Part shown: piece by piece, positions 6,632 to 38,955 of the stretch
Layout of the letters: the number at the start of each line of letters is the position of its first letter
Numbering within the stretch: the stretch's first letter is position 1
Virus record (IMG/VR): IMGVR_UViG_3300050343_000171
Strand: one strand, 5' to 3'
DNA length: 64,000 bases
Source of the DNA: an uncultured virus (IMG/VR IMGVR_UViG_3300050343_000171)
Taxonomy: Duplodnaviria > Heunggongvirae > Uroviricota > Caudoviricetes > Crassvirales
The notes under the pieces: model-generated
The model's input: only the letters and a program-made list of their open reading frames with translations
Told to the model about the DNA's origin: nothing
Database searches by the model: none
Position numbers and translations under genes: made by a program

Positions 6632-8366
6632 TTATCCATCACAACTAAGACAGCCGTCATCCATTGCTTGTTCAGCAATATCTCCACGTAACACTGACTC
6701 AGTACGAGTATAGTATAAAGTTTTAATACCTTTTTTCCAAGCTTCAAAATGTACTTTATTTATCCACTTAGGTGTAGCAACACTAGGAAAAGCTAAGTTT
6801 AAACTTACACTTTGATCTATATACTGCTGTCTGATACCAGCTTGATTAATTAACTCTAACTGATTAATCTCTTTAAATGTTTTAAATACATCTTTAGCTG
6901 GTATATCATTATAAGGACCAACCATAACTTTATTAAGTTCTTTTAACCCTTGTACTGATCCTCCGTCTTTTAAGATTTTAGACCAAGTAGTTTCATTATT
7001 GATTTTAAGTTTTCGAAAGAGCTTTAACCAATGTGGGATTTTTACGGATGAAAGTACCTTTAGCACTTTGCTCAGTAAATACATTAGCAGCCCAAGGCTC
7101 AATACCTGGAGATACATTACCGCTAAGCTTACTGTTACTAACAGTAGGAGCAATAGCCCTAAGATGAGTGTTGCGCAAACCAGTGCCGACACACCAAAGA
7201 GGTTCTCCAAACTCTTCAGCAAGAGCCATAGAGCTCTTTCAGATTCGATTTTAATTTGTGAAAATATTTTTCTTGTTTCATATTGTGATAATAACCTTCA
7301 AATGGTAAACCCTTTTCTTGTAGATACGTGTGCCAACCTAAAACGCCTAATCCTAAAGCTCTACCTTTTTCAGCAGATCTTACAGAATTATGAAATCCAA
7401 CTTTACCTTTGGATCTTTGTATAAACTCTTCTAATACACCATCTAAAAACCATATAGCTATCATGTATTAATATTTGTATTTTCCATTCATCATACTTAG
7501 CTAGATTTAAACTAGATAAACAACATATAAAGCTATGTTTTCATCTGTATGTAATGTTATCTCACTACATATGTTTGTCATATGTACTTTTAAACCGTTT
7601 TTTTGTAAGCTGTTGGGTTATTCTTGTTTGTATTTCCCTTAAATAAGCATATAAGGTTCTCCAGTAGCTTTACGCTTTTGAAGTAAGTTTTCCCCAACGT
7701 TTTCTAGCTTCTAACATCTCCTGTTTCAACTCTTCGCATGAACTTATCGCCGACCACAGCGCACTGGTGCAGGTTGAGCGATTGACGATTAACGTCTCCT
7801 TTAGGTTCACGTATTTCGAGCCACTCTTCAAAATCGGGGTGTTCAATGTTAATATTAACTGATGCAGCTCCTCGTCGGACAGATCCTTGATTAGTGGCAA
7901 GTATTGTTGAATCGTATATCTTACAAAAAGGCACAACGCCGTCACTTGTTCCATTTCCTTTTATTTTTGCACCAGCGGGTCTGATTTGATTTATACCGAT
8001 ACCAACTCCACCGCCGTGCTTTGCGAGTAGCATCATCTCTAGGTTTTTACTGTCCTATATCGTATATACTGTCAGCAACATCTATACCAAAACAACTGAT
8101 CGGTAAACCTCTGTCTGTCCCAGTATTAGACAACACAGGAGACGCAAGACATAACCAACCTGACCAAATGTATTCAAAAATTTTTCAGCCATATCAGGAC
8201 GTTCTAAACGTCTTGCTACAGTGTTACAAACTCTATCATAAGCATCTTTAGGTGTTTCATCTTTTAAAAGATAACCACCACCTATAGTTTTTTTATACAC
8301 ATCAGTGTCACCCCAACTAGGGTAATCAACTCCTTTTTTCCATTCATTATTCCACATCTGTTTCAA
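6632..8366 (-). CDS. nrdA: Ribonucleotide reductase class Ia large subunit (frameshifted in this sequence)
   Basis: Fragments contain KHGGGVGI, QGSVRRGAA, GRALGLGVLG, AIAPTVSNS, IDQSVSLN, KTLYY and C-terminal CLSCDG. Confidence 0.92.
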
Positions 8367-8737: not shown

Positions 8738-9718
8738 TTACCAAACATCTTCAAAGTCTTCGCCTTCATTTGCTTTACTATAGTCAGTCGGCCTAATAGC
8801 GAAAAAATCAGTGTGAGTGTGACCCCCAGTAAGATGGTCGAACCAAGCCATTTTATCAATTGACTTTTGGTCATATTCAAATTTAAATTTTCCTTCTGCT
8901 TTGTAGCCCAGTTCTTTAAGTTTATCACCTGTACGTTTTTTAATAAAATGTTTTAGGTCATATTCTGTTATTCCTTCAATATCACCCATTTCAAACAACT
9001 TAGATATATAAGTCATTTCAGCATTATGCATAGTTAAAGCTGCATCATATATATGCTCTTTGCATTCTTCTTTTAATCCTGGTATTTTCGAACACATATG
9101 TCTAAATAATTGACAACCCATTTTACTATGTAATGATTCATCTCTTACAGACCATTTCATTTGTTGGCCAATACCTTTTAATAAGTTTCTCATTTGAAAA
9201 CTATAAAGTACAGCAAAAGCAGAATATAAACTAACGCCTTCTGCAAACGCAGAAAATGTAGCTAATGATTTACCTATACCTACAGGATCATTACCTTCAT
9301 AAGCTACAAGATTATCAAATCTAGCAGCTGTAGCTGGTTCATGTAAAAAAGCTTCATAAGTCTTCAAGACCTAAGGTTTCATTTAAATAACTATATGCTA
9401 CTGCGTGAATCGTTTCTTGCGATCCAAACATCATAGCCATTTGTTGTATCTCGTGTTTAGGAAACCAAGATACAACTTTTTGCGTCCAGTAATCGGAGAC
9501 AGCGCATTCGGTTTGTGCAAAGCCTAAGTAGTATGTTACCTACTAAGGTTTTTTTCTTTATCAGTTAATTTTTCGTTCCAGTCTTTAACATCACCTGACA
9601 TAGGTATTTCAGTATGTAACCAAAATGCTTGAGCTTGTTTTAACCAACCTTCAGTGTAATACTCAGGGTATTCAAAAGGCTTGTACGGTATTCTTTCTGT
9701 AAATAGTGGTATTCCCAT
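8738..9718 (-). CDS. nrdB: Ribonucleotide reductase small subunit (frameshifted)
   Basis: YKPFEYP..AFWLHTEI..D.KDW, EGVSLYSAF, RDESLH and HTDFFA.RPTDYSK motifs. Confidence 0.92.
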
Positions 9719-11194: not shown

Positions 11195-11629
11195 TTAAAA
11201 ATACTCTGCAAAAGCTTTATTATATATGTAAGATCTATTATCATTATACATAGAAACTTTAGCGTTATCCATTATCCATTGTATTGTTTGCATATCTATG
11301 TAGAACTTACCGTGAGATGTTTCCCATTTTATATTCATATTATCCATAAGATGTCCTTTTAGTTTGTTTAAAGGAACTGCAAAAGTTGAAGTCTGTTCTG
11401 TTACGTTTATTTTCATTTTCTTAAAAAGGTTTTTATATTTTTTTCTATCTACCTTATAGCCATAAGACTTTTGAAGTTCTATCTCTTTGTCTGATATATA
11501 ATCTATATCATCCGACTGATCAAGAACTTCATATTCACTAGAGCTATAGCCCTGAATTAATGTAACACGAGTATTAAGATCACGTGTAACACCTATCTTT
11601 TTACCTGGTATGTGGTATAAATAATACAT
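11195..11629 (-). CDS. Hypothetical protein with a GIY-YIG-like N-terminus
   Basis: YYLYHIPGKKIGVTRDLNTRV resembles the GIY-YIG Y..(K)IG.T..L..R pattern. Confidence 0.45.
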   Translation of the reverse strand: MYYLYHIPGKKIGVTRDLNTRVTLIQGYSSSEYEVLDQSDDIDYISDKEIELQKSYGYKVDRKKYKNLFKKMKINVTEQTSTFAVPLNKLKGHLMDNMNIKWETSHGKFYIDMQTIQWIMDNAKVSMYNDNRSYIYNKAFAEYF

Positions 11630-12279
11630 ATTTTGTTATTTTATCGTTATACAAATGTAAGTTATGTGCGAAATGGTAATACGTACCGATCTCATATCCT
11701 GTCCTCTCTGAGACTAATTCTTGTAGCTTTGAAAAACAATACTGATCATTACAGAAACCGTACCAGAGATCATTAGAACGCATCACAACTGACATATTTA
11801 GTTTATTGTTTAATACTGTAAACTGAACCGCATAAGTACATGGCGTATCTTTAGCATAGTAATGATGTTCTTTACCATCATATATACTTATTGCCGCGTG
11901 TCTAGTATTAGGATTATCCTTAAGCTTTGCAACTACATAATCTAATTGATAGTTACGTTCCCATTGCCAACCGTAATTAGATCTTACTTCATTATTACCG
12001 TCAACCATTCGTTGCCATATCTCAGGTACTTTACCATATATCTCTCCTAACTTATCTACATTAGGATCACCTGATAAGTACCATTGCCATTCAGCTTCAG
12101 CATATTCTTTATTCCATTTTCTGTTTTTAGCTAGTATATGATTATCCATAGGGTTTTTCAATATAAAAACCTATATTAAATAAAGCTCTAGTATTATCAA
12201 ACTTAACACCATCAAACATTATTTTGGAAAAAAATAATTAAAATGCATCACTTGCTGTTTTAAATTTTGTTTTTATCAT
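11601..12279 (-). CDS. Thymidylate-synthase-fold enzyme, dCMP hydroxymethylase/methylase-like; N-terminus frameshifted
   Basis: YGWQW, DNPNTRHA, catalytic PC, MRSNDLWYGFCND and HNLHLY motifs. Confidence 0.85.
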
Positions 12280-18474: not shown

Positions 18475-19330
18475 TTACTCATAGTTACGAATAGTTTTAA
18501 ACAATGGATGTCTGTAACTACCGTATTGAGTACGTTCGAAATATGTAAACGTAGCTGTTTGGCCTATGTAGTCATGAATATTTTTAAGCATATTAGCTAG
18601 ATCTTTGTAGTTGTAGCCTTTACCTGGAGGACAACCAAACTCTGTTACCATCATCATCTTGCATTAAGAACTTGCCAAGAGTACCTTCACGTTTGCCTTT
18701 ACCTTCTTCATAGCCTACAATTGTAGCTTCGGTGTCATTAAAGTCTTTAAACTTTTGTAAGTTGTAAGATCGTTTTTGCTGATAAGGTTTGTCTAGACTT
18801 AATATAGAGCCTTCGTAACCGTTATTTAGATTATACTGATGTCTTAATGTTTGCAGCGTCTTTAGAATTAACTAGAGTAGTTTCTACATATTTAACACAG
18901 TAGGAATACATATCAGAACAAGCTAGTTGATTCATTCTGTAACCATAAGGCATCCATACTGTTTCTATATAGTCATAACAATGAAACTGTACTAATTCTT
19001 TCAGCTTCAGCTTTATCAGCATCAGTTGGTTTTTGTTTTCTGACTAATGATATAATCTTTTCAAAAGTCATCTTTAAGATCATGGTTGTACAATTCACCG
19101 TCGAGTACAACATCTACATTAGCATAGTCAAAGAAAAATTTGTTTAACGATAGTTTAATGTGTTCAAGATTGTGAAATTCTTTACCTGTACGTGAGAAAC
19201 ATCTGATGTTTTCTTTGTCGTCGACGTATATAACACACCTTACGCCGTCAAGCTTAGGTTGAATGTATACTTTCTCGGACCAGTCGACAGGTTTTTTGTC
19301 TACTTTGTATGCGAGCATTGGTTTAATCAT
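18475..19330 (-). CDS. ATP-dependent DNA ligase (frameshifted)
   Basis: PMLA, QPKLDGVRC, LDGELY, GYEGSILR, KRSYNLQKFK and YRHP. Confidence 0.9.
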
Positions 19331-20306: not shown

Positions 20307-20495
20307 TATACTAATTCTTCTACTATGCTGACTACTTCAGCAATTATTAATATTGTACGCCTAATGGTATAGATGACATTAGCAGTATAAAACCGCATAC
20401 TCTAAGCACAGATTTAACTACGCTTGCTGCAAAATGAGGAGTAAATTTACATCTCATTTGATCATTTATTCATATTTATTATTATTTAATGTTAG

Positions 20496-20568
20496 TTGAC
20501 TCGCTAGGGCTCGAACCTAGACTCTTCTGGACCAAAACCAGACGTGTTGCCAGTTACACCACGAGTCA
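20496..20568 (-). tRNA. tRNA-Gln(UUG); CCA not encoded
   Basis: Cloverleaf with TGACTCG/CGAGTCA acceptor, TCTGG-TTTTGGT-CCAGA anticodon arm and GGTTCGAG T loop. Confidence 0.93.
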
Positions 20569-21352: not shown

Positions 21353-21574
21353 ACAAATCTTTCTCTTATCTACTATCGATTATTTCACCGATGTCGATCT
21401 TGCATAGCTACTACATCCATAGCTAAGTAGTTGTAGTTCAGCTAATCCATCAACTTCATAGGTACTCATGTAATCATTGAAGTCATTATCTTGTATAGCG
21501 TTTACACAGTCTCTCTAACGCTCTTGCAGTATTCTCAAACCTGCAGTAACTCATGTTTGGCCATTTAATGTTAG

Positions 21575-21640
21575 TTGCGGCGGAAGGATTCGAACCCCCG
21601 ACCTTCGGGTTATGAGCCCGACGAACTGCTCTACGCCGCA
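21575..21640 (-). tRNA. tRNA-Met(CAU), initiator-like; D arm appears about 7 nt short
   Basis: TGCGGCG/CGCCGCA acceptor, TCGGG-CTCATAA-CCCGA with three G-C pairs, GGTTCGAATCC. Confidence 0.85.
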
Positions 21641-21645
21641 TTTAG

Positions 21646-21725
21646 TGGAAGTGGGCGGAGTCGAACCGCCGTTATACTTAACACCATGCTATTTATGGGT
21701 ATTCAAGTCTTACCTTATCACTCCC
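21646..21725 (-). ncRNA. tRNA-like RNA resembling an isolated tmRNA tRNA-like domain
   Basis: GGGAGTG/CACTTCC-A acceptor with G3:U70, unpaired D region ATAAGGTAAGAC, irregular long stem, T arm GGCGG-TTCGACT-CCGCC. Confidence 0.65.
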
Positions 21726-21728
21726 ATT

Positions 21729-21870
21729 TCGAGGCACCAGTTGTGGACAGGTAGTTAACTAGTATTGTCATTTATCCACACTTTCTGTTTCGTACTGGCA
21801 CAGTCGTATCCATCCGTTTGGTTCATAACTGTCCGATCTACCTAACGTGACCTGTATGCCGCCGCCTCGA
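21729..21870 (-). ncRNA. Candidate multi-branch structured RNA
   Basis: Closing stem TCGAGGC/GCCTCGA with internal GGCATA/TGTGCC and TGTGGATA/TGTCCACA stems; GC-rich; no ORF called. Confidence 0.5.
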
Positions 21871-25563: not shown

Positions 25564-28500
25564 ATGGCAATAATATACTCATACCCTACAGTAACGCCTA
25601 CATCTGATGATTTAGTTTTAGGTACAGACGTAAATGGAGAGGGTAAACCAACAAAAAACTTTACGATACAAAGTATTGTAGACATCGTACAGGGTGGAGC
25701 CACTGGTTTAGGTGCAGTACTTGCTATTAGTAGTGATGCCCTTCAACAACCTGCTACAAACTTTATAAATGTACAGGGTACAGGAACATCTACCTTTGGA
25801 TCATTTACAGATGGTACAATGACAATATCAAGTGGTGTCGGTACTGGATTTACTAGTATAACTTCAACTGATTTTCAAGGTAATTTAACAGGTATAATAA
25901 AAGCTGGCTCTTCTAGTATACAAGGTTCTGTAACAGGTGTAACACAAACAGCTGGTACAAGTGATACAACATTAGCTACAACTGAGTTTGTTATGGATAA
26001 AGTTGATCCTTCTGTATTAACTTTTGATGGTACTTCAGGCGGTGATCAAACTGTAAACTTAGCTGCTCAAAAATTTAGCTTACTAGGAACTGCTAACGAA
26101 ATAGAATCTGTAGGTACAGCACAAACAATAACTTTTGGTTTTCCAGCTGCAGGCGTGGTTTTACCAGATGGTTCAACTGCTACAACCCAAGCTGCATCAG
26201 ATGATTCAACTAAAATTGCTACAACTGCTTTTGTTAGAAATTATGATGACACTCAAGATCTTGATTTTTCTGGAACAACAGGTTCAGGTTCTGTACTTTT
26301 AAATAGTCAAACACTAGCTATAGCAGGTACAGCTAATCAAATAGTTACAAATGGAGGTGGTCAGACATTAACTATAGCATTAACAAATCCTATTGTTACA
26401 AACTTAACAGGTAATGTGACTGGTATATTAAAAGCTACATCAAGTATAGAAGGTTCAGCTGGTGGAACAGATGCTCAAAACGTTTTAGCTGTAACTCAAA
26501 ACTCAGGAGATAATTCTACAAGAATAGCAACAACAGCTTATGTGGAGGCTGCCGCTGGAGCTAAAACATTAGATTATGCAGGTGACTCTACAGGACCATT
26601 TGCTTTAAATTTATCAACTGATGATTTAGAATTTAATGGTGATTCAAATATAACAGTTACAGCTGCTGCGGTTGCTGCTAACTAAAGGTATTGTAACTAT
26701 TGATTTAAATAATGATGTCGGTATATCCGGTACAATGACAGCTGGTACATTTACAGATGGAACTTTTACAGGATCATCTGGTACATACACGGGTGGTGTT
26801 AGTATAACATCTAGTACTTTTACCGCAACAAATACTCCAATAGGTTTTATTGGTAATGCAAGTACAGCAACAGCTTTAGTATCGCCCGGTACAATACAAT
26901 TGTTATCTGGTTCTGGTGCAACACAAGGTGTAGCAAGTAATGCTGTAACTTATACAAGTGGTGGTGATGTTCAATTAACTACAACACTTGCTGATACAAC
27001 GGTAACAGGTAAAACACTACAAGGATTACCAACACCCGCCGCAGCAACAGTTGTAGCTGGTGATACTATATTAGAAGGTATTGGTAAATTACAATCACAG
27101 ATTAATGGTATTGCAAATGGGTTACAGTTTCAAGGAACTTGGAATGCAAATATAGATGAAGGTGGTGCGGGTGCAGCACCTAATGGAACTCCAGCGCTTG
27201 CATCAGGTGGTGGTGAAGCTACGTCTGGAACAACAAATGCAACTACAGTTAATGAATTAGTTGATACAACAAAAAACTTTACTGCAGCTCCAAACGTTGT
27301 AGCTGTAGGTGATAAAGTAATAAATCAAGTTGATGGTCAAACGGCATTAGTAACTAGTATAGCAAACGCCGCTTCAGGTAGATTAGGTATAGGCGCTAAT
27401 ATAATGCTAACTGCTGAAGCTTATATAATAGATAAACCTCCTTTTATAACAGCTGGTCATTATTATGTGGTTGATACCGTTGGAGCAACTACCGCTAAAA
27501 ATGCTACATTAAACGGTATACAAGACTGGCAAGTTGGTGACTGGGTTATTGCATCTATAAATAATGTATGGCAAAAGCTTAACAACTCTGCTGTTGAAGG
27601 ATCTGGTACTTCAAATAGACTAACTAAATGGGGTTCTGCGGCTAGCACATTAATTGATTCAGGTATAATTGATGATGGAACAACTATAAAATTAGAAAAT
27701 GACACAGAACTTGGTGCGGTATCTACTGATACTATTAAATTAAACGGTCCAACTACTTTTGAGTCAACAGGTAGGTTTAAAAAAGGTATAGCATTAGGCA
27801 CCGCAACAGATGGTTCAGAGTATGGTGCATCTAATCAAGTGTTAACTGCAAGTACTTCTGCAGGTTCACCTCCAACTTGGGAAACACCAACGACAGGTAC
27901 AGTTACTAGTGTAGCTTTAACTGAAACAGGTGATGCACTTACTATAACAGGTTCGCCAATAACAAGTAGTGGCACTATTAATATAGCAGGTGCTGGAGCT
28001 CCTGGAGATTATATAAATGGTGAATTAAATTTAGTTTCATTTCCAGTTTTAGATAATTATGTTAGCTGGACACTAGCTGGTGATACAGGATCTTCTCAAA
28101 CTATAAGTTCTACCAATACGGCTACTTTTGCTGGAGGATTTGGTATTAGTACAGTTGCTAGCGCAACCGATACATTAACAACAGCTATTGATATAGTAGG
28201 TGCAGATAATGCAATTGCAGGATTAACTGCAGCAGCTCCTTTAGCCACAGATACTTTATGGTTTAATGATATAAGCGATTCTAATACTATTAGAAAAGCA
28301 ACTATATCAAATATTGTAGCTTTAGGAGATCAAGGTTTACCTGCAGTATTAGCTATTAACAATACATCTGGTGGTACTGATATTGCAGTAAGTGCAGGAG
28401 ATGATGTAACATTCACTGATACTAGTAAAGCAAAATTTGGAACAGGTAACAATTTACAAATATTTCATAATGGAACAGGAGCTCGTATAGAGAATACTAC

Positions 28501-29416
28501 TGGAGCGTCAACTATTTTATCAGACACTCTTAGTATAAACAATGCAGCTGATAGTGAGACTATGGCTCAGTTTGTTCATAATGGTGCTGTAGATCTTTAT
28601 CATAATGGGTTGTCAAGGTTTAAAACTACAACGACAGGTGTTGAGGTAGTCAACACAGATGCAAATGTTCCACCGACCATATTATTAAATCAAGATTCTA
28701 ATAATTTTACAATAACGCAAGCCGTAAGCGGTGCTGGTCAAATAATAAACAGTTTTGGATCGTTATCTTTAAGAAACGATGGTAGTATTAATTTACAAAA
28801 TAATGCAGGAACTTATACTAAAGCTAGTTTTGATAGTAGTATAAGTTTTAGCCCTGATAATTTAGCTGAAACAGCTACAGTACCAGGTGTTACTATTTAT
28901 AAATCTACAGATGCTACAGCTGACGGAACTAGAACTAGAGTATATGGTGATTTACAAGTTGATGGCAATATAATACATGAAGGAGGGGGTGGTGGAATAT
29001 TTTATGGTGATCAATCTGTAACATCAGCAGGTGGTGCCACTTTAGCATTTACTTTAACAAGAGCTACAACAGGAACATTAACATTTGATGTATGGTTTAC
29101 TTCAGAAACAAGCAAAGAAACATCTGTTGCTAAAAAATATGTAGTTGCTAGAGGAACAGGATCGAGCGGTGCTCCAGTTTATAACAAAATAATTGATACA
29201 GGACCTTCTATATATCCAAATAATAATAATACTACTGATTTTACTGTTTCATTTATTGATGATCCTCAAGCAGCATTAGCAGGTACATCTATTTTATGTA
29301 AAATAACAGTTACTGGAACTAACAGTTCTGGTACAGCCTTAACTCAAAATATAGGTTATACAGTTCAAGTTGGGCATGACAGTACAAATGCTCTTACGTT
29401 TACCCCAGCATCATAA
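25564..29416 (+). CDS. Long tail fibre protein; one gene split by an indel near 26680
   Basis: G/T/S/A-rich, repeated DxSTxIATTAF/YV fibre motifs, and an FQGTWNA...DWQVGDWVI domain. Confidence 0.8.
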
Positions 29417-37153: not shown

Positions 37154-38695
37154 ATGTCAAATGCAATTGTAAAAAATCTGAACTTTGGTTCGGATGCTAA
37201 AAACAATGTGTTTGCTGGTATTACAAAACTTACACAAGCCGTTAGCTCCACACTAGGAGCTAGTGGCAAATGTGTTATGTTAGAAGATAGTACTGGTCAA
37301 CCTATTATTACAAAAGATGGTGTAACTGTAGCTGAAGCTATTACACTTCTTGATCCTGTTGAAAACATGGGAGCAACATTACTTAAACAAGCCGCAAAGA
37401 AAACTGTTAGTGAAGCAGGTGATGGAACCACTACAGCAACCGTATTGGCTCATGCTATACTAAGTGAAGCATATAAAGTAATAACAAAAGAAAACTCAAG
37501 AGAAGTAAAAGAAAGTATACTTACAGCTACAAACAAAGTAGTTGATTACTTAGATTCTATAGTAACACCAGTAGATGGTGATATGATAGATCAAGTTGCT
37601 ACAATATCTACAAATAATGATCCCATACTTGGTAAAATTATTGCAGATGCTTTTAGATCAGTTGATCAAACAGGTGTAGTGATGCTAGAGGTTTCTGATT
37701 TACCAGAAACTAATTTTGAAACTATTGATGGTGTACAATATGATAGAGGATTAAAAAATATACATTTTGTAACTAATCAAGATACTAAAACAGCTGAACT
37801 AGATAAACCTTTAGTTTTAATCGTAGAGTCAGAGGTTGAAAATGTAAGAAAAATACAAAGTGTTTTAGAGTATGCTATAAAGAATAAAAGATCATTACTT
37901 ATTATTGCTGATATTGATCAACAAGTTATGTCAGCTTTAGCAATGAACAAAATAAAAGGTAATATTAAAGTAAATGTTATCGATGCACCTATCTATGGTG
38001 TAAATAAAAAAGAAACACTAGAAGATTTAGCGTTACTTACAGGTGCTACAGTTATTAATGAAGATCTTGGAGATGATATTGATTTAATACAACCTGAGCA
38101 ACTTGGTGAATGTAAGAAAACAATAACTAGTGAGCATGAAACCATATTGCAAGTTCATGAGGTAAATAAAGAAGTCAAAGATTTAATTGAAGATATAAAA
38201 GCTAAACTTAAAACAGCTAAACACCCAGGTATTATAATTAATAATGAAAAAAGATTAGCTAGATTATCAGGTAAAGTTGCTATTGTAAAGGTTGGTGCTA
38301 ATTCCGAGGTTGAATTAAAAGAAAAACGTGATAGAGTTGAAGATGCTATCTGTGCTACTAAAGCTGCTATCAAAGAAGGTATTGTACCTGGTGGTGGTAT
38401 TGCTTTATTAAATGCATCACAAGAAATAGATACTTCAAACTCTTTAGAAAAAATACTTTTAAGAGCTATTAAATCCCCTTTCAATACAATACTTGCTAAT
38501 GCTGGTATTAAAAATGAAAAGTTTTTTAATCAAGAAGGTAAAGGTCTAAACGTTGTTACAGGAAATATGGTAAATATGATTGAGTCAGGGATTATTGATC
38601 CTTTACTCGTCACAAAAAGTGCATTAAAAAATGCTAGCTCTGTGGCTAGAACTATTTTATCAACCGATTGTGTAATTAATAATCTTAAGAATTAA
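37154..38695 (+). CDS. groEL: Phage chaperonin GroEL
   Basis: ITKDGVTVA, AGDGTTTATVLA, KVGA.SEVELKEK.DRVEDA..ATKAAI.EGIVPGGG and GIIDP..VT.SAL.NA.S. Confidence 0.97.
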   Translation: MSNAIVKNLNFGSDAKNNVFAGITKLTQAVSSTLGASGKCVMLEDSTGQPIITKDGVTVAEAITLLDPVENMGATLLKQAAKKTVSEAGDGTTTATVLAHAILSEAYKVITKENSREVKESILTATNKVVDYLDSIVTPVDGDMIDQVATISTNNDPILGKIIADAFRSVDQTGVVMLEVSDLPETNFETIDGVQYDRGLKNIHFVTNQDTKTAELDKPLVLIVESEVENVRKIQSVLEYAIKNKRSLLIIADIDQQVMSALAMNKIKGNIKVNVIDAPIYGVNKKETLEDLALLTGATVINEDLGDDIDLIQPEQLGECKKTITSEHETILQVHEVNKEVKDLIEDIKAKLKTAKHPGIIINNEKRLARLSGKVAIVKVGANSEVELKEKRDRVEDAICATKAAIKEGIVPGGGIALLNASQEIDTSNSLEKILLRAIKSPFNTILANAGIKNEKFFNQEGKGLNVVTGNMVNMIESGIIDPLLVTKSALKNASSVARTILSTDCVINNLKN

Positions 38696-38955
38696 TGAAA
38701 GCAATAGGTAATAATTTAATAGTAGACATGACAAAACAAGGTGTCTCTGAAACCAAAGGCGGTTTGTTTTTAGCAGAAAAACAACGAGAAGATATAAGAT
38801 ATGCAGAAGGTACAATATTATCAGTAGGTAGTAGTGTTATAGGGATTAAAAAAGGTGATGTTATTTATTTTGATAAAAACAACGCTCATCAAATAGAAAT
38901 AAAAAAAGAAATATATCAAATTGTTAATATAGCACACGTAGTTGTTGTGTTATGA
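38695..38955 (+). CDS. groES: Co-chaperonin GroES
   Basis: ETKGGLFL...GTILSVG...IKKGDVIYF; adjacent to groEL. Confidence 0.9.
   Translation: MKAIGNNLIVDMTKQGVSETKGGLFLAEKQREDIRYAEGTILSVGSSVIGIKKGDVIYFDKNNAHQIEIKKEIYQIVNIAHVVVVL

Follow-up and report, generated by a model that had tools for sequence, protein, structure and literature searches.

A probable transfer-messenger RNA reduced to its tRNA-like domain, with exchangeable middle modules, in a family of uncultured marine phages

The IMG/VR virus record IMGVR_UViG_3300050343_000171, analysed here as one stretch of 64,000 nucleotides (the window), carries on its minus strand an 80-nt element (21646-21725) that resembles the tRNA-like part of a transfer-messenger RNA (tmRNA), which raises the question of what an RNA of this kind is and what it could do for a phage. 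The element is very probably a functional tmRNA-type RNA that consists of the tRNA-like domain (TLD) only. Opinion is about evenly poised on whether it acts on trans-translation at all, and an action as an inhibitor or decoy is somewhat doubtful. The joint claim, TLD-only tmRNA identity together with an action on trans-translation, is put forward tentatively, at slightly less than even likelihood.

An earlier reading made from the letters of the window (the sequence-only reading) had described a 7-bp acceptor with G3:U70, a discriminator A, a T arm, a stemless loop and a 10-bp helix at this place on the minus strand, and the same anatomy was recovered here. The parts of the element are as follows (class 1 is one of two scaffold classes of the family described below).

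21646..21725, minus strand: whole gene of the TLD-only (tag-less) mini-tmRNA, 80 nt
21719..21725, minus strand: 5' strand of the acceptor, GGGAGUG, with G3 of the G3:U70 pair at 21723
21709..21718, minus strand: stemless D-loop analogue AUAAGGUAAG with a GG doublet, nearly constant across class 1
21673..21708, minus strand: P2-like helix with its variable cap (the "module"), 36 nt
21671..21672, minus strand: AC spacer immediately 5' of the T stem
21654..21670, minus strand: T arm, GGCGG-UUCGACU-CCGCC
21647..21653, minus strand: 3' strand of the acceptor, CACUUCC, with U70 at 21649
21646, minus strand: discriminator A, followed by the trailer CUA; CCA is not encoded

The seven acceptor pairs are G1:C, G2:C, G3:U, A4:U, G5:C, U6:A, and G7:C. 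The D arm is replaced by the unpaired AUAAGGUAAG without a D stem, and the position of the anticodon arm is occupied by an irregular 10-bp helix (6 + 4) with one bulged A and a 12-nt loop, which in the centroid fold gains 2 bp and has a loop of 7 nt. Within the module, a closing helix (ACUUGA/UUAAGU) surrounds an inner hairpin (CCAU-AAAUAGC-AUGG). The gene ends in ...CACUUCCA, after which the genome continues with CUA rather than CCA. The minimum free energy of the element is -25.1 kcal/mol (z = -2.63), and 2 of 200 shuffled sequences folded as well.

A canonical tRNA is not what these parts add up to, as there is no D stem, no anticodon arm with a 7-nt loop, and no ARAGORN call. The G3:U70 acceptor, discriminator A, consensus T loop, stemless GG loop, and long P2 are those of a tmRNA, from which the element departs by lacking a resume codon, tag frame and stop, and the pseudoknots PK1-PK4, and by a score under the Rfam gathering score. 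With only 36 nt between the constant parts, the window element contains no mRNA-like domain. In a search of 801 nt at permissive thresholds, the Rfam tmRNA model (RF00023) aligned to the element from end to end (model positions 1-374, with ~300 positions skipped) at 37.5 bits and E = 2.4e-13. Neither the Rfam tRNA model (RF00005) nor the mt-tmRNA model was the best match of its clan for the element, and no Rfam family ranked above tmRNA among the matches listed for the element or its class-2 relatives. The claim of a tmRNA-type tRNA-like domain without a tag frame is supported. The Rfam alignment covers the whole element at a score below the gathering threshold of 47 bits, and ARAGORN is silent.

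The element belongs to a family, which was sampled by exact-pattern scans of IMG/VR (loci are given by L numbers), so that further scaffold classes are likely. The 3' 25-mer of class 1 was found at 22 loci, comprising 19 short elements with GGGAGUG, two full-length tmRNAs, and one damaged copy (L015), and the class-1 5' 17-mer at 39 loci, comprising 35 complete elements, one fusion (L044), and three unrelated matches. The class-2 scaffold (GGGCGUG...CACGUCCA), whose 3' end occurs at 60 loci, was discovered through a tandem second copy in L020, and a scan for the class-2 head only returned 61 loci, 38 of which are members and 23 unrelated matches. A script searching for both class patterns extracted 27 distinct elements of class 1 and 54 of class 2 (81 in all, median 92 nt), and a looser pattern gave 86 distinct elements in at least 94 distinct element-plus-flank contexts. 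True members are 68-177 nt long, the maximum of 237 nt given by the script being two joined copies in L015. Between loci with 74-98% identity over 1.5 kb of flank, the constant ends do not differ.

A covariance model of the acceptor and T arm (R1), built from 15 training sequences including the window element, gave the members 37-90 bits (79.8 bits for the window element) and the two full-length tmRNAs ~27 bits. The tRNA-Met genes of the relatives scored 15 bits, and the window tRNA-Met fell outside the E<=1 listing. All 20 class-2 loci compared with the Rfam tmRNA model aligned end to end, at 28.9-45.2 bits. The two full-length tmRNAs (L006 at 77.2 bits and L014 at 62.2 bits, the latter with the ARAGORN tag AMSKWNEVDETPVYSINRSQLAMAV*) share the exact class-1 3' 25-mer, which suggests that the short elements descend from a phage tmRNA. 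A search of 185,579 species genomes gave a single match to the 25-mer, on a 903-nt contig assigned to a Planctomycetota metagenome-assembled genome, and this contig itself bears a 116-nt member of the family, so that the sequence belongs to phages rather than to a host tmRNA. A fragment of a host tmRNA or an attP site was rejected on the same ground, and also because no integrase was found in the window (Pfam) and the 5' strand that pairs with the 25-mer is present.

Three loci hold tandem or hybrid copies. At L020 (2847-3025, plus strand) a class-1 element is preceded, at a distance of 3 nt, by a tandem paralogue with A3:U70. Both copies of a tandem pair in L015 (1871-2107, minus strand) are damaged, the T stem of one being interrupted by an insertion and the 5' acceptor strand of the other mutated. 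L044 (401-489, plus strand) holds a hybrid gene with its 5' half from a class-1 element and its 3' half from tRNA-Met (R1, 31.1 bits), apparently via a deletion between neighbours. The sequence-only reading had allowed that relatives might reveal an ordinary tRNA or a full-length tmRNA shortened by an assembly deletion; neither was seen at the locus, and both were ruled out by more than 80 short variants and the lack of an ARAGORN tRNA call.

Conservation of the alanine determinant, on which the proposed identity depended, was examined in an alignment guided by the covariance model (93 matches in 73 distinct rows). In this alignment 99.4% of the cells pair, a level reached by 0 of 500 shuffles. 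G3:U70 is present in 69 of the 73 rows and A:U in four; in three of the latter (L034, L088, and L089) the model chose an internal GGAAGUG of long elements, that is, the 5' end was misplaced, which leaves one true exception. The adjoining pair 4:69 varies, 44 rows having C:G, 25 A:U, and one U:G, and a U:A form turned up in the head-only scan. In the T stem, two pairs covary from one class to the other, and GCGGG/CCCGC, GGUGG/CCACC, and GGGGG/CCCUC occur as additional variants. The discriminator is A in all 38 members from the head-only scan, in which this position was unconstrained, and the AC preceding the T stem and the GG doublet in the D-loop analogue, both also present in the Rfam tmRNA consensus and in the phage DS6A element discussed below, are nearly invariant in the family. 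Of 160 trailer sites, 150 read CUA, five CAA, and two CCA, where the counted loci partly repeat the same contigs. Judged from these alignments, the alanine identity appears to be under selection, and charging appears to matter because G3:U70 is kept while neighbouring pairs covary.

The middle of the elements behaves differently, as the sequence between the constant 17 nt and 27 nt is not alignable across the family. Even so, 76 of 80 elements have a closing helix (P2) of 4 bp or more, and 53 one of 5 bp or more, with 51 different helix sequences, compared with 23% reaching 4 bp or more in controls whose 5' and 3' halves came from different elements. The middles of the 81 elements fall into 48 module types, of which 32 are singletons and some are nested in larger ones, and eight types occur in both scaffold classes. 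Module 7 retains one 103-nt architecture in classes 1 and 2, with compensatory changes in 9 of 31 pairs and conserved loops. Tag-encoding open reading frames (ORFs) in the longer middles were considered and ruled out, since relatives differ by 1-nt indels and the hairpins covary. No Rfam match to the modules was found at E<=0.5 in 20 loci or at E<=1 in 11 loci.

Module 0 (AACCNCGGCGWAAGCAAAGGU), which is shaped as a hairpin with a GNRA-type tetraloop and an asymmetric internal loop, was located at 23 sites in 22 loci, of which 13 lie within G3:U70 elements, four lie within tRNA-like elements without G3:U70, and six are free-standing. The free-standing copies (L218, L225, L234; the second site of L227, L232; L229) sit at the tip of long hairpins that a T-run follows or lie just past an ORF stop, and one stands beside a free copy of module 1. 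The four elements without G3:U70 (L219, L224, L230, and L239) have other acceptor and T stems around the same module; ARAGORN called none of them, and the Rfam tRNA model gave them 20.3 bits at best. Another module was seen three times within elements and twice free between an element and tRNA-Met. Between element and tRNA-Met in L004, L009, L010, and L017 there is also a conserved structured stretch of ~95 nt with AGAGAGAUG...CAUCUCUCU closure, for which no Rfam match was found at E<=0.01 (L004).

The module type of the window is rare and is common to L002/L243, L008/L256, and L262, whose copies show compensatory changes in each of the two helices and keep an AAAUAY loop; of 47 matches to its pattern, three lie in elements and 44 are chance matches. 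Swapping of a cassette within a near-identical background was only partly seen: in L005 the flanks are 93-94% identical, yet the middle aligns over only 19 nt, whereas in L008, with flanks of 95-98% identity, the middle is homologous. The elements sit in arrays with tRNA genes and have the CUA trailer in common with tRNA-Met.

Message-less tmRNAs are not without precedent, and the novelty that the sequence-only reading had attributed to the element was overstated. The tmRNA of Mycobacterium phage DS6A is listed as "TLD only" in Table 2 of Hudson, Lau and Williams (PMC4131195) and again in the 2025 tmRNA database paper (PMC11915505), and the latter describes tmRNAs without a coding sequence (CDS), of ~65 bp, in the plastids of Mallomonadaceae and likewise in jakobid mitochondria. 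According to both sources, a DS6A-like TLD molecule strongly inhibits tmRNA whether or not it can be charged (Mao et al., 2009), for which PMC4131195 proposes that SmpB is "perhaps" titrated. The organellar forms persist alongside SmpB (PMC11915505), which by analogy suggests a useful role in rescue.

The DS6A element, unannotated in GenBank, was located at 28478-28560 of JN698994, where the Rfam tmRNA model aligns end to end with 312 positions skipped (43.2 bits, below the gathering score). Like the window element, it is phage-borne, ~80 nt long, and endowed with G3:U70, a discriminator A, a T arm, and a stemless GG loop, has no tag frame, carries a P2 capped by ~20 nt, and is trailed by CUA. 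Similarity in sequence is low: R1 gives it only 23.8 bits (E = 2.4e-5 on 451 nt), most of which is explained by the shared architecture. The difference between a high-GC actinophage and a marine phage of the Flavobacteriia type with 32% GC indicates that the DS6A and marine elements probably arose independently. Moreover, DS6A is presented in these sources as a single sequence, in contrast to the more than 80 variants, swappable modules, and tandem paralogues found here. The jakobid and Mallomonadaceae forms, from ~65 bp upward, likewise consist of the tRNA-like domain alone without a tag frame, but they are inherited vertically, depend on a nucleus-encoded SmpB, and in the account of PMC11915505 are reported without variable modules.

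Full-length phage tmRNAs, as in the mycobacteriophage Bxz1 group and Bacillus phage G (listed in PMC4131195), the two-piece ssrA of the marine phage Melnitz (PMC9004378), and IMG/VR loci L006 and L014, resemble the family in being phage-borne ssrA genes beside tRNA genes. They differ in having a tag frame, in exceeding the gathering score, and in having at least 300 nt where the window element has 36. The t-elements of plant mitochondria are described in PMC1920247 as anticodon-less tRNA-like structures beside other RNAs that could direct cleavage by RNase P and RNase Z; as described there, they mark the ends of mRNAs and have neither a conserved alanine identity nor a tmRNA-type D loop, whereas the window family keeps G3:U70 and A73 and the element is a self-contained unit. 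By its sequence features the window element is therefore placed in the known kind of CDS-less tmRNAs, and outside tmRNA proper because it has no tag frame, no pseudoknots, and a score below gathering. No earlier description of this marine family was found in the literature. What is new is the size and marine setting of the family, the evidence for selection on alanine identity, and the architecture of exchangeable modules.

The proposed action starts from a transcript shared with the neighbouring tRNA-Met, from which RNase P would cut the 5' end of the element, while the 3' end would be trimmed past the discriminator and completed with CCA, because the gene encodes CUA. The host alanyl-tRNA synthetase would charge the RNA through G3:U70 and A73, and the D-loop analogue with its GG, the AC spacer, the T arm, and the base of P2 would bind SmpB and EF-Tu of the host. 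SmpB would be supplied by the host because no SmpB gene was found in five related contigs (two of them complete), in a search whose control matched 10 of 14 known genomes. An RNA without a resume codon or tag frame could not complete trans-translation, and by competing with the host tmRNA for SmpB and stalled ribosomes it may blunt tagging during infection. The P2-distal part is an exchangeable structured module, which may add a further role.

Several observations weigh against this identification or against an action on trans-translation. ARAGORN called only tRNA-Gln (20495-20568) and tRNA-Met (21574-21640) in the window and none of the short forms tested elsewhere, Rfam at the gathering score reports the same two tRNAs in the window and not the element, and its 37.5 bits are below the 47 bits of RF00023. 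The A3:U70 paralogue of L020, known from a single contig, is a true exception to the alanine rule, L222 has a discriminator U, and the covariation in acceptor and T stem goes back to few separate events, with two to four scaffold variants. The damaged copies in L015 and L044 indicate that the gene can be lost. No member was found in the cultured relatives Panino, elemoF, phi38:1, Calle_1, and phi46:3, in the GenBank metagenomic relative MW202828, or in record G001, where the best R1 score over the seven records (20.2 bits) is at the level of a tRNA, and blastn against deposited phages returned tRNA or T-arm matches but no member. Contigs from RNA libraries that cover the element are assembled contigs without strand, RNA ends, or CCA, and could stem from DNA carry-over. 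Modules that are free-standing or held in frames without G3:U70 are left unexplained by a pure SmpB decoy, and a lytic phage has no evident gain from blocking trans-translation.

The exchangeable modules, which the sequence-only reading had not noted, support an alternative in which trans-translation is not the target. The tRNA-like ends would then mainly guide RNase P, the trimming of the 3' end, and the addition of CCA, besides giving the RNA a stabilising frame, and the active part would be the middle, for example a protein-binding or decoy RNA, in the manner of t-elements or of a natural "tRNA scaffold". A variant of this idea holds that a constant, chargeable, SmpB-binding frame displays one of dozens of modules, which recombine between the constant ends, are also used free elsewhere in the genome, and are stabilised by the frame or delivered by it to the ribosome or SmpB in a fast-evolving conflict with the host; the family would in that case be a modular RNA toolkit and not one decoy. 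The 48 module types among 81 elements (eight spanning both classes), the module 7 architecture kept across classes with its 9 of 31 compensatory pairs, and the occurrence of module 0 in four frames without G3:U70 and at six free sites, together with the two free copies of another module, all fit this explanation, as do the arrays with tRNAs and the shared CUA trailer, and t-elements offer a model for RNase P/Z signals (PMC1920247). A mere cutting signal has no need of G3:U70, discriminator A, GG loop, or AC spacer, yet all of these are kept, and the window module is both small (36 nt) and rare (three of 47 pattern matches within elements). Both versions are judged rather unlikely, and the scaffold is compatible with an action on trans-translation, as the two can coexist.

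If trans-translation is the target, the element could also help rather than hinder it. An alanyl mini-tmRNA with host SmpB could enter stalled ribosomes and take over the nascent chain, after which drop-off or a hydrolase would free the ribosome and the protein would leave untagged, so that phage proteins would be protected and ribosomes stay available; the same role has been proposed for the CDS-less tmRNAs of jakobid mitochondria (PMC11915505). Rescue draws on the same structural evidence as inhibition, the organellar forms persist with SmpB, and the strict retention of G3:U70 and A73 argues for charging, which an SmpB sponge would not need; indeed, the DS6A-like molecule was inhibitory "whether or not chargeable" (PMC4131195). 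A release-factor partner is not evident among the 59 ORFs of the window (Pfam), however, and the sole experimental precedent cited is one of inhibition and not of rescue; tag-less rescue is considered quite improbable. Far less credible is that the element is a decoy for tRNA nucleases, as the sequence-only reading had also offered, or a full-length tmRNA or tRNA that is decaying or was misassembled. Its place in a phage tRNA cluster, the damaged copies in L015 and L044, and the many split genes of the window could be so explained, but the middles are unrelated in sequence and share no conserved anticodon-like 7-nt loop, which leaves a decoy for tRNA-targeting defences without support, and an artefact or neutral decay is excluded by more than 80 distinct short forms on many contigs with compensatory changes in all helices. 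Contigs of DNA run X1 also span the element.

The TLD-only tmRNA gene lies between a tRNA gene and a conserved leader.

21726..21779, minus strand: conserved non-coding leader (GUGGAUAAAUGACAAUACUAGUUAACUACCUGUCCACAACUGGUGCCUC... / GUGGAUAAAUGACAAUACUAGUUAACUACCUGUCCAC...), upstream of many members
21641..21645, minus strand: 5-nt spacer CUAAA between the element and tRNA-Met
21575..21640, minus strand: tRNA-Met(CAT), adjoining the element downstream, the usual neighbour of class 1

The leader could be a promoter or a processed leader. Other loci have CACAUAAGUGAAUUGCCUGCUACAAU immediately before G1 in its place, and a related motif, GGAAGUGUAUUAC, recurs within long modules; these motifs and the leader could be promoters or protein sites. 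CUA also directly follows the discriminator of tRNA-Met itself. In the D arm of the window's tRNA-Met 7 nt are missing (GAGCAGUUCG vs GAGCAGUGGCCAGCUCG in L005, L008, and others), and this 66-nt gene still reaches a tRNA score of 50.6 bits. Three G:C pairs in its anticodon stem, a criterion of initiator tRNAs, make it look initiator-like, and it carries U1:A72. Contigs from two oligo-dT RNA libraries lie over the element (X15 record 11 at 21598-21777 and X16 record 15 at 21642-21725), the first of which spans the tRNA-Met shorter by 7 nt, and DNA run X1, whose contigs also cover the element, contains both forms of this tRNA.

The window has a GC content of ~32% and encodes phage proteins recognised by PHROGs and Pfam, including a primase-helicase, an ERF recombinase, tail fibres, GroEL/GroES, and virion proteins. 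Its probable major capsid protein is 46% identical to that of Maribacter phage Panino, 42% to those of the Flavobacterium "elemo" phages, and 36% to those of Cellulophaga phages phi38:1 and Calle, and because of these relatives the host is probably a marine member of the Flavobacteriia. The public runs that contain the stretch are marine, estuarine, or viral metagenomes, and the source is an uncultured marine podovirus of the Flavobacteriia-phage group. A 100%-complete relative in IMG/VR (G007, locus L008) has 66,393 bases. GroEL (513 aa, PHROG 5725, E = 4.6e-134) and GroES (Cpn10) are both encoded at 37154-38955 (plus strand). Several enzymes identified by Pfam are split or partial (6632-8036, 8738-9367, 11601-12161, and 18475-19330, all on the minus strand), namely the large chain of ribonucleotide reductase (three ORFs), its small chain, thymidylate synthase, and DNA ligase (two pieces), which points either to gene decay or to frameshifts in an assembly rich in indels. 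In Panino (L134, 27557-27889) ARAGORN reports a permuted "tmRNA*" over tRNA-Asp and tRNA-Thr within a cluster of eight tRNAs, which is probably a false call, as R1 finds only 18.6 bits nearby.

In the accounts of PMC4131195 and PMC11915505, the TLD-only tmRNAs of phages have so far amounted to one sequence (DS6A) and one cited inhibition experiment. Judging by the family described here, uncultured marine phages of an abundant group commonly carry such RNAs in conserved form, and standard tools (ARAGORN, and Rfam at the gathering score) miss the short forms. The retention of G3:U70 bears on what a message-less tmRNA does, and the swappable modules, which recur in free-standing hairpins, suggest that phages have an RNA biology built from modules.

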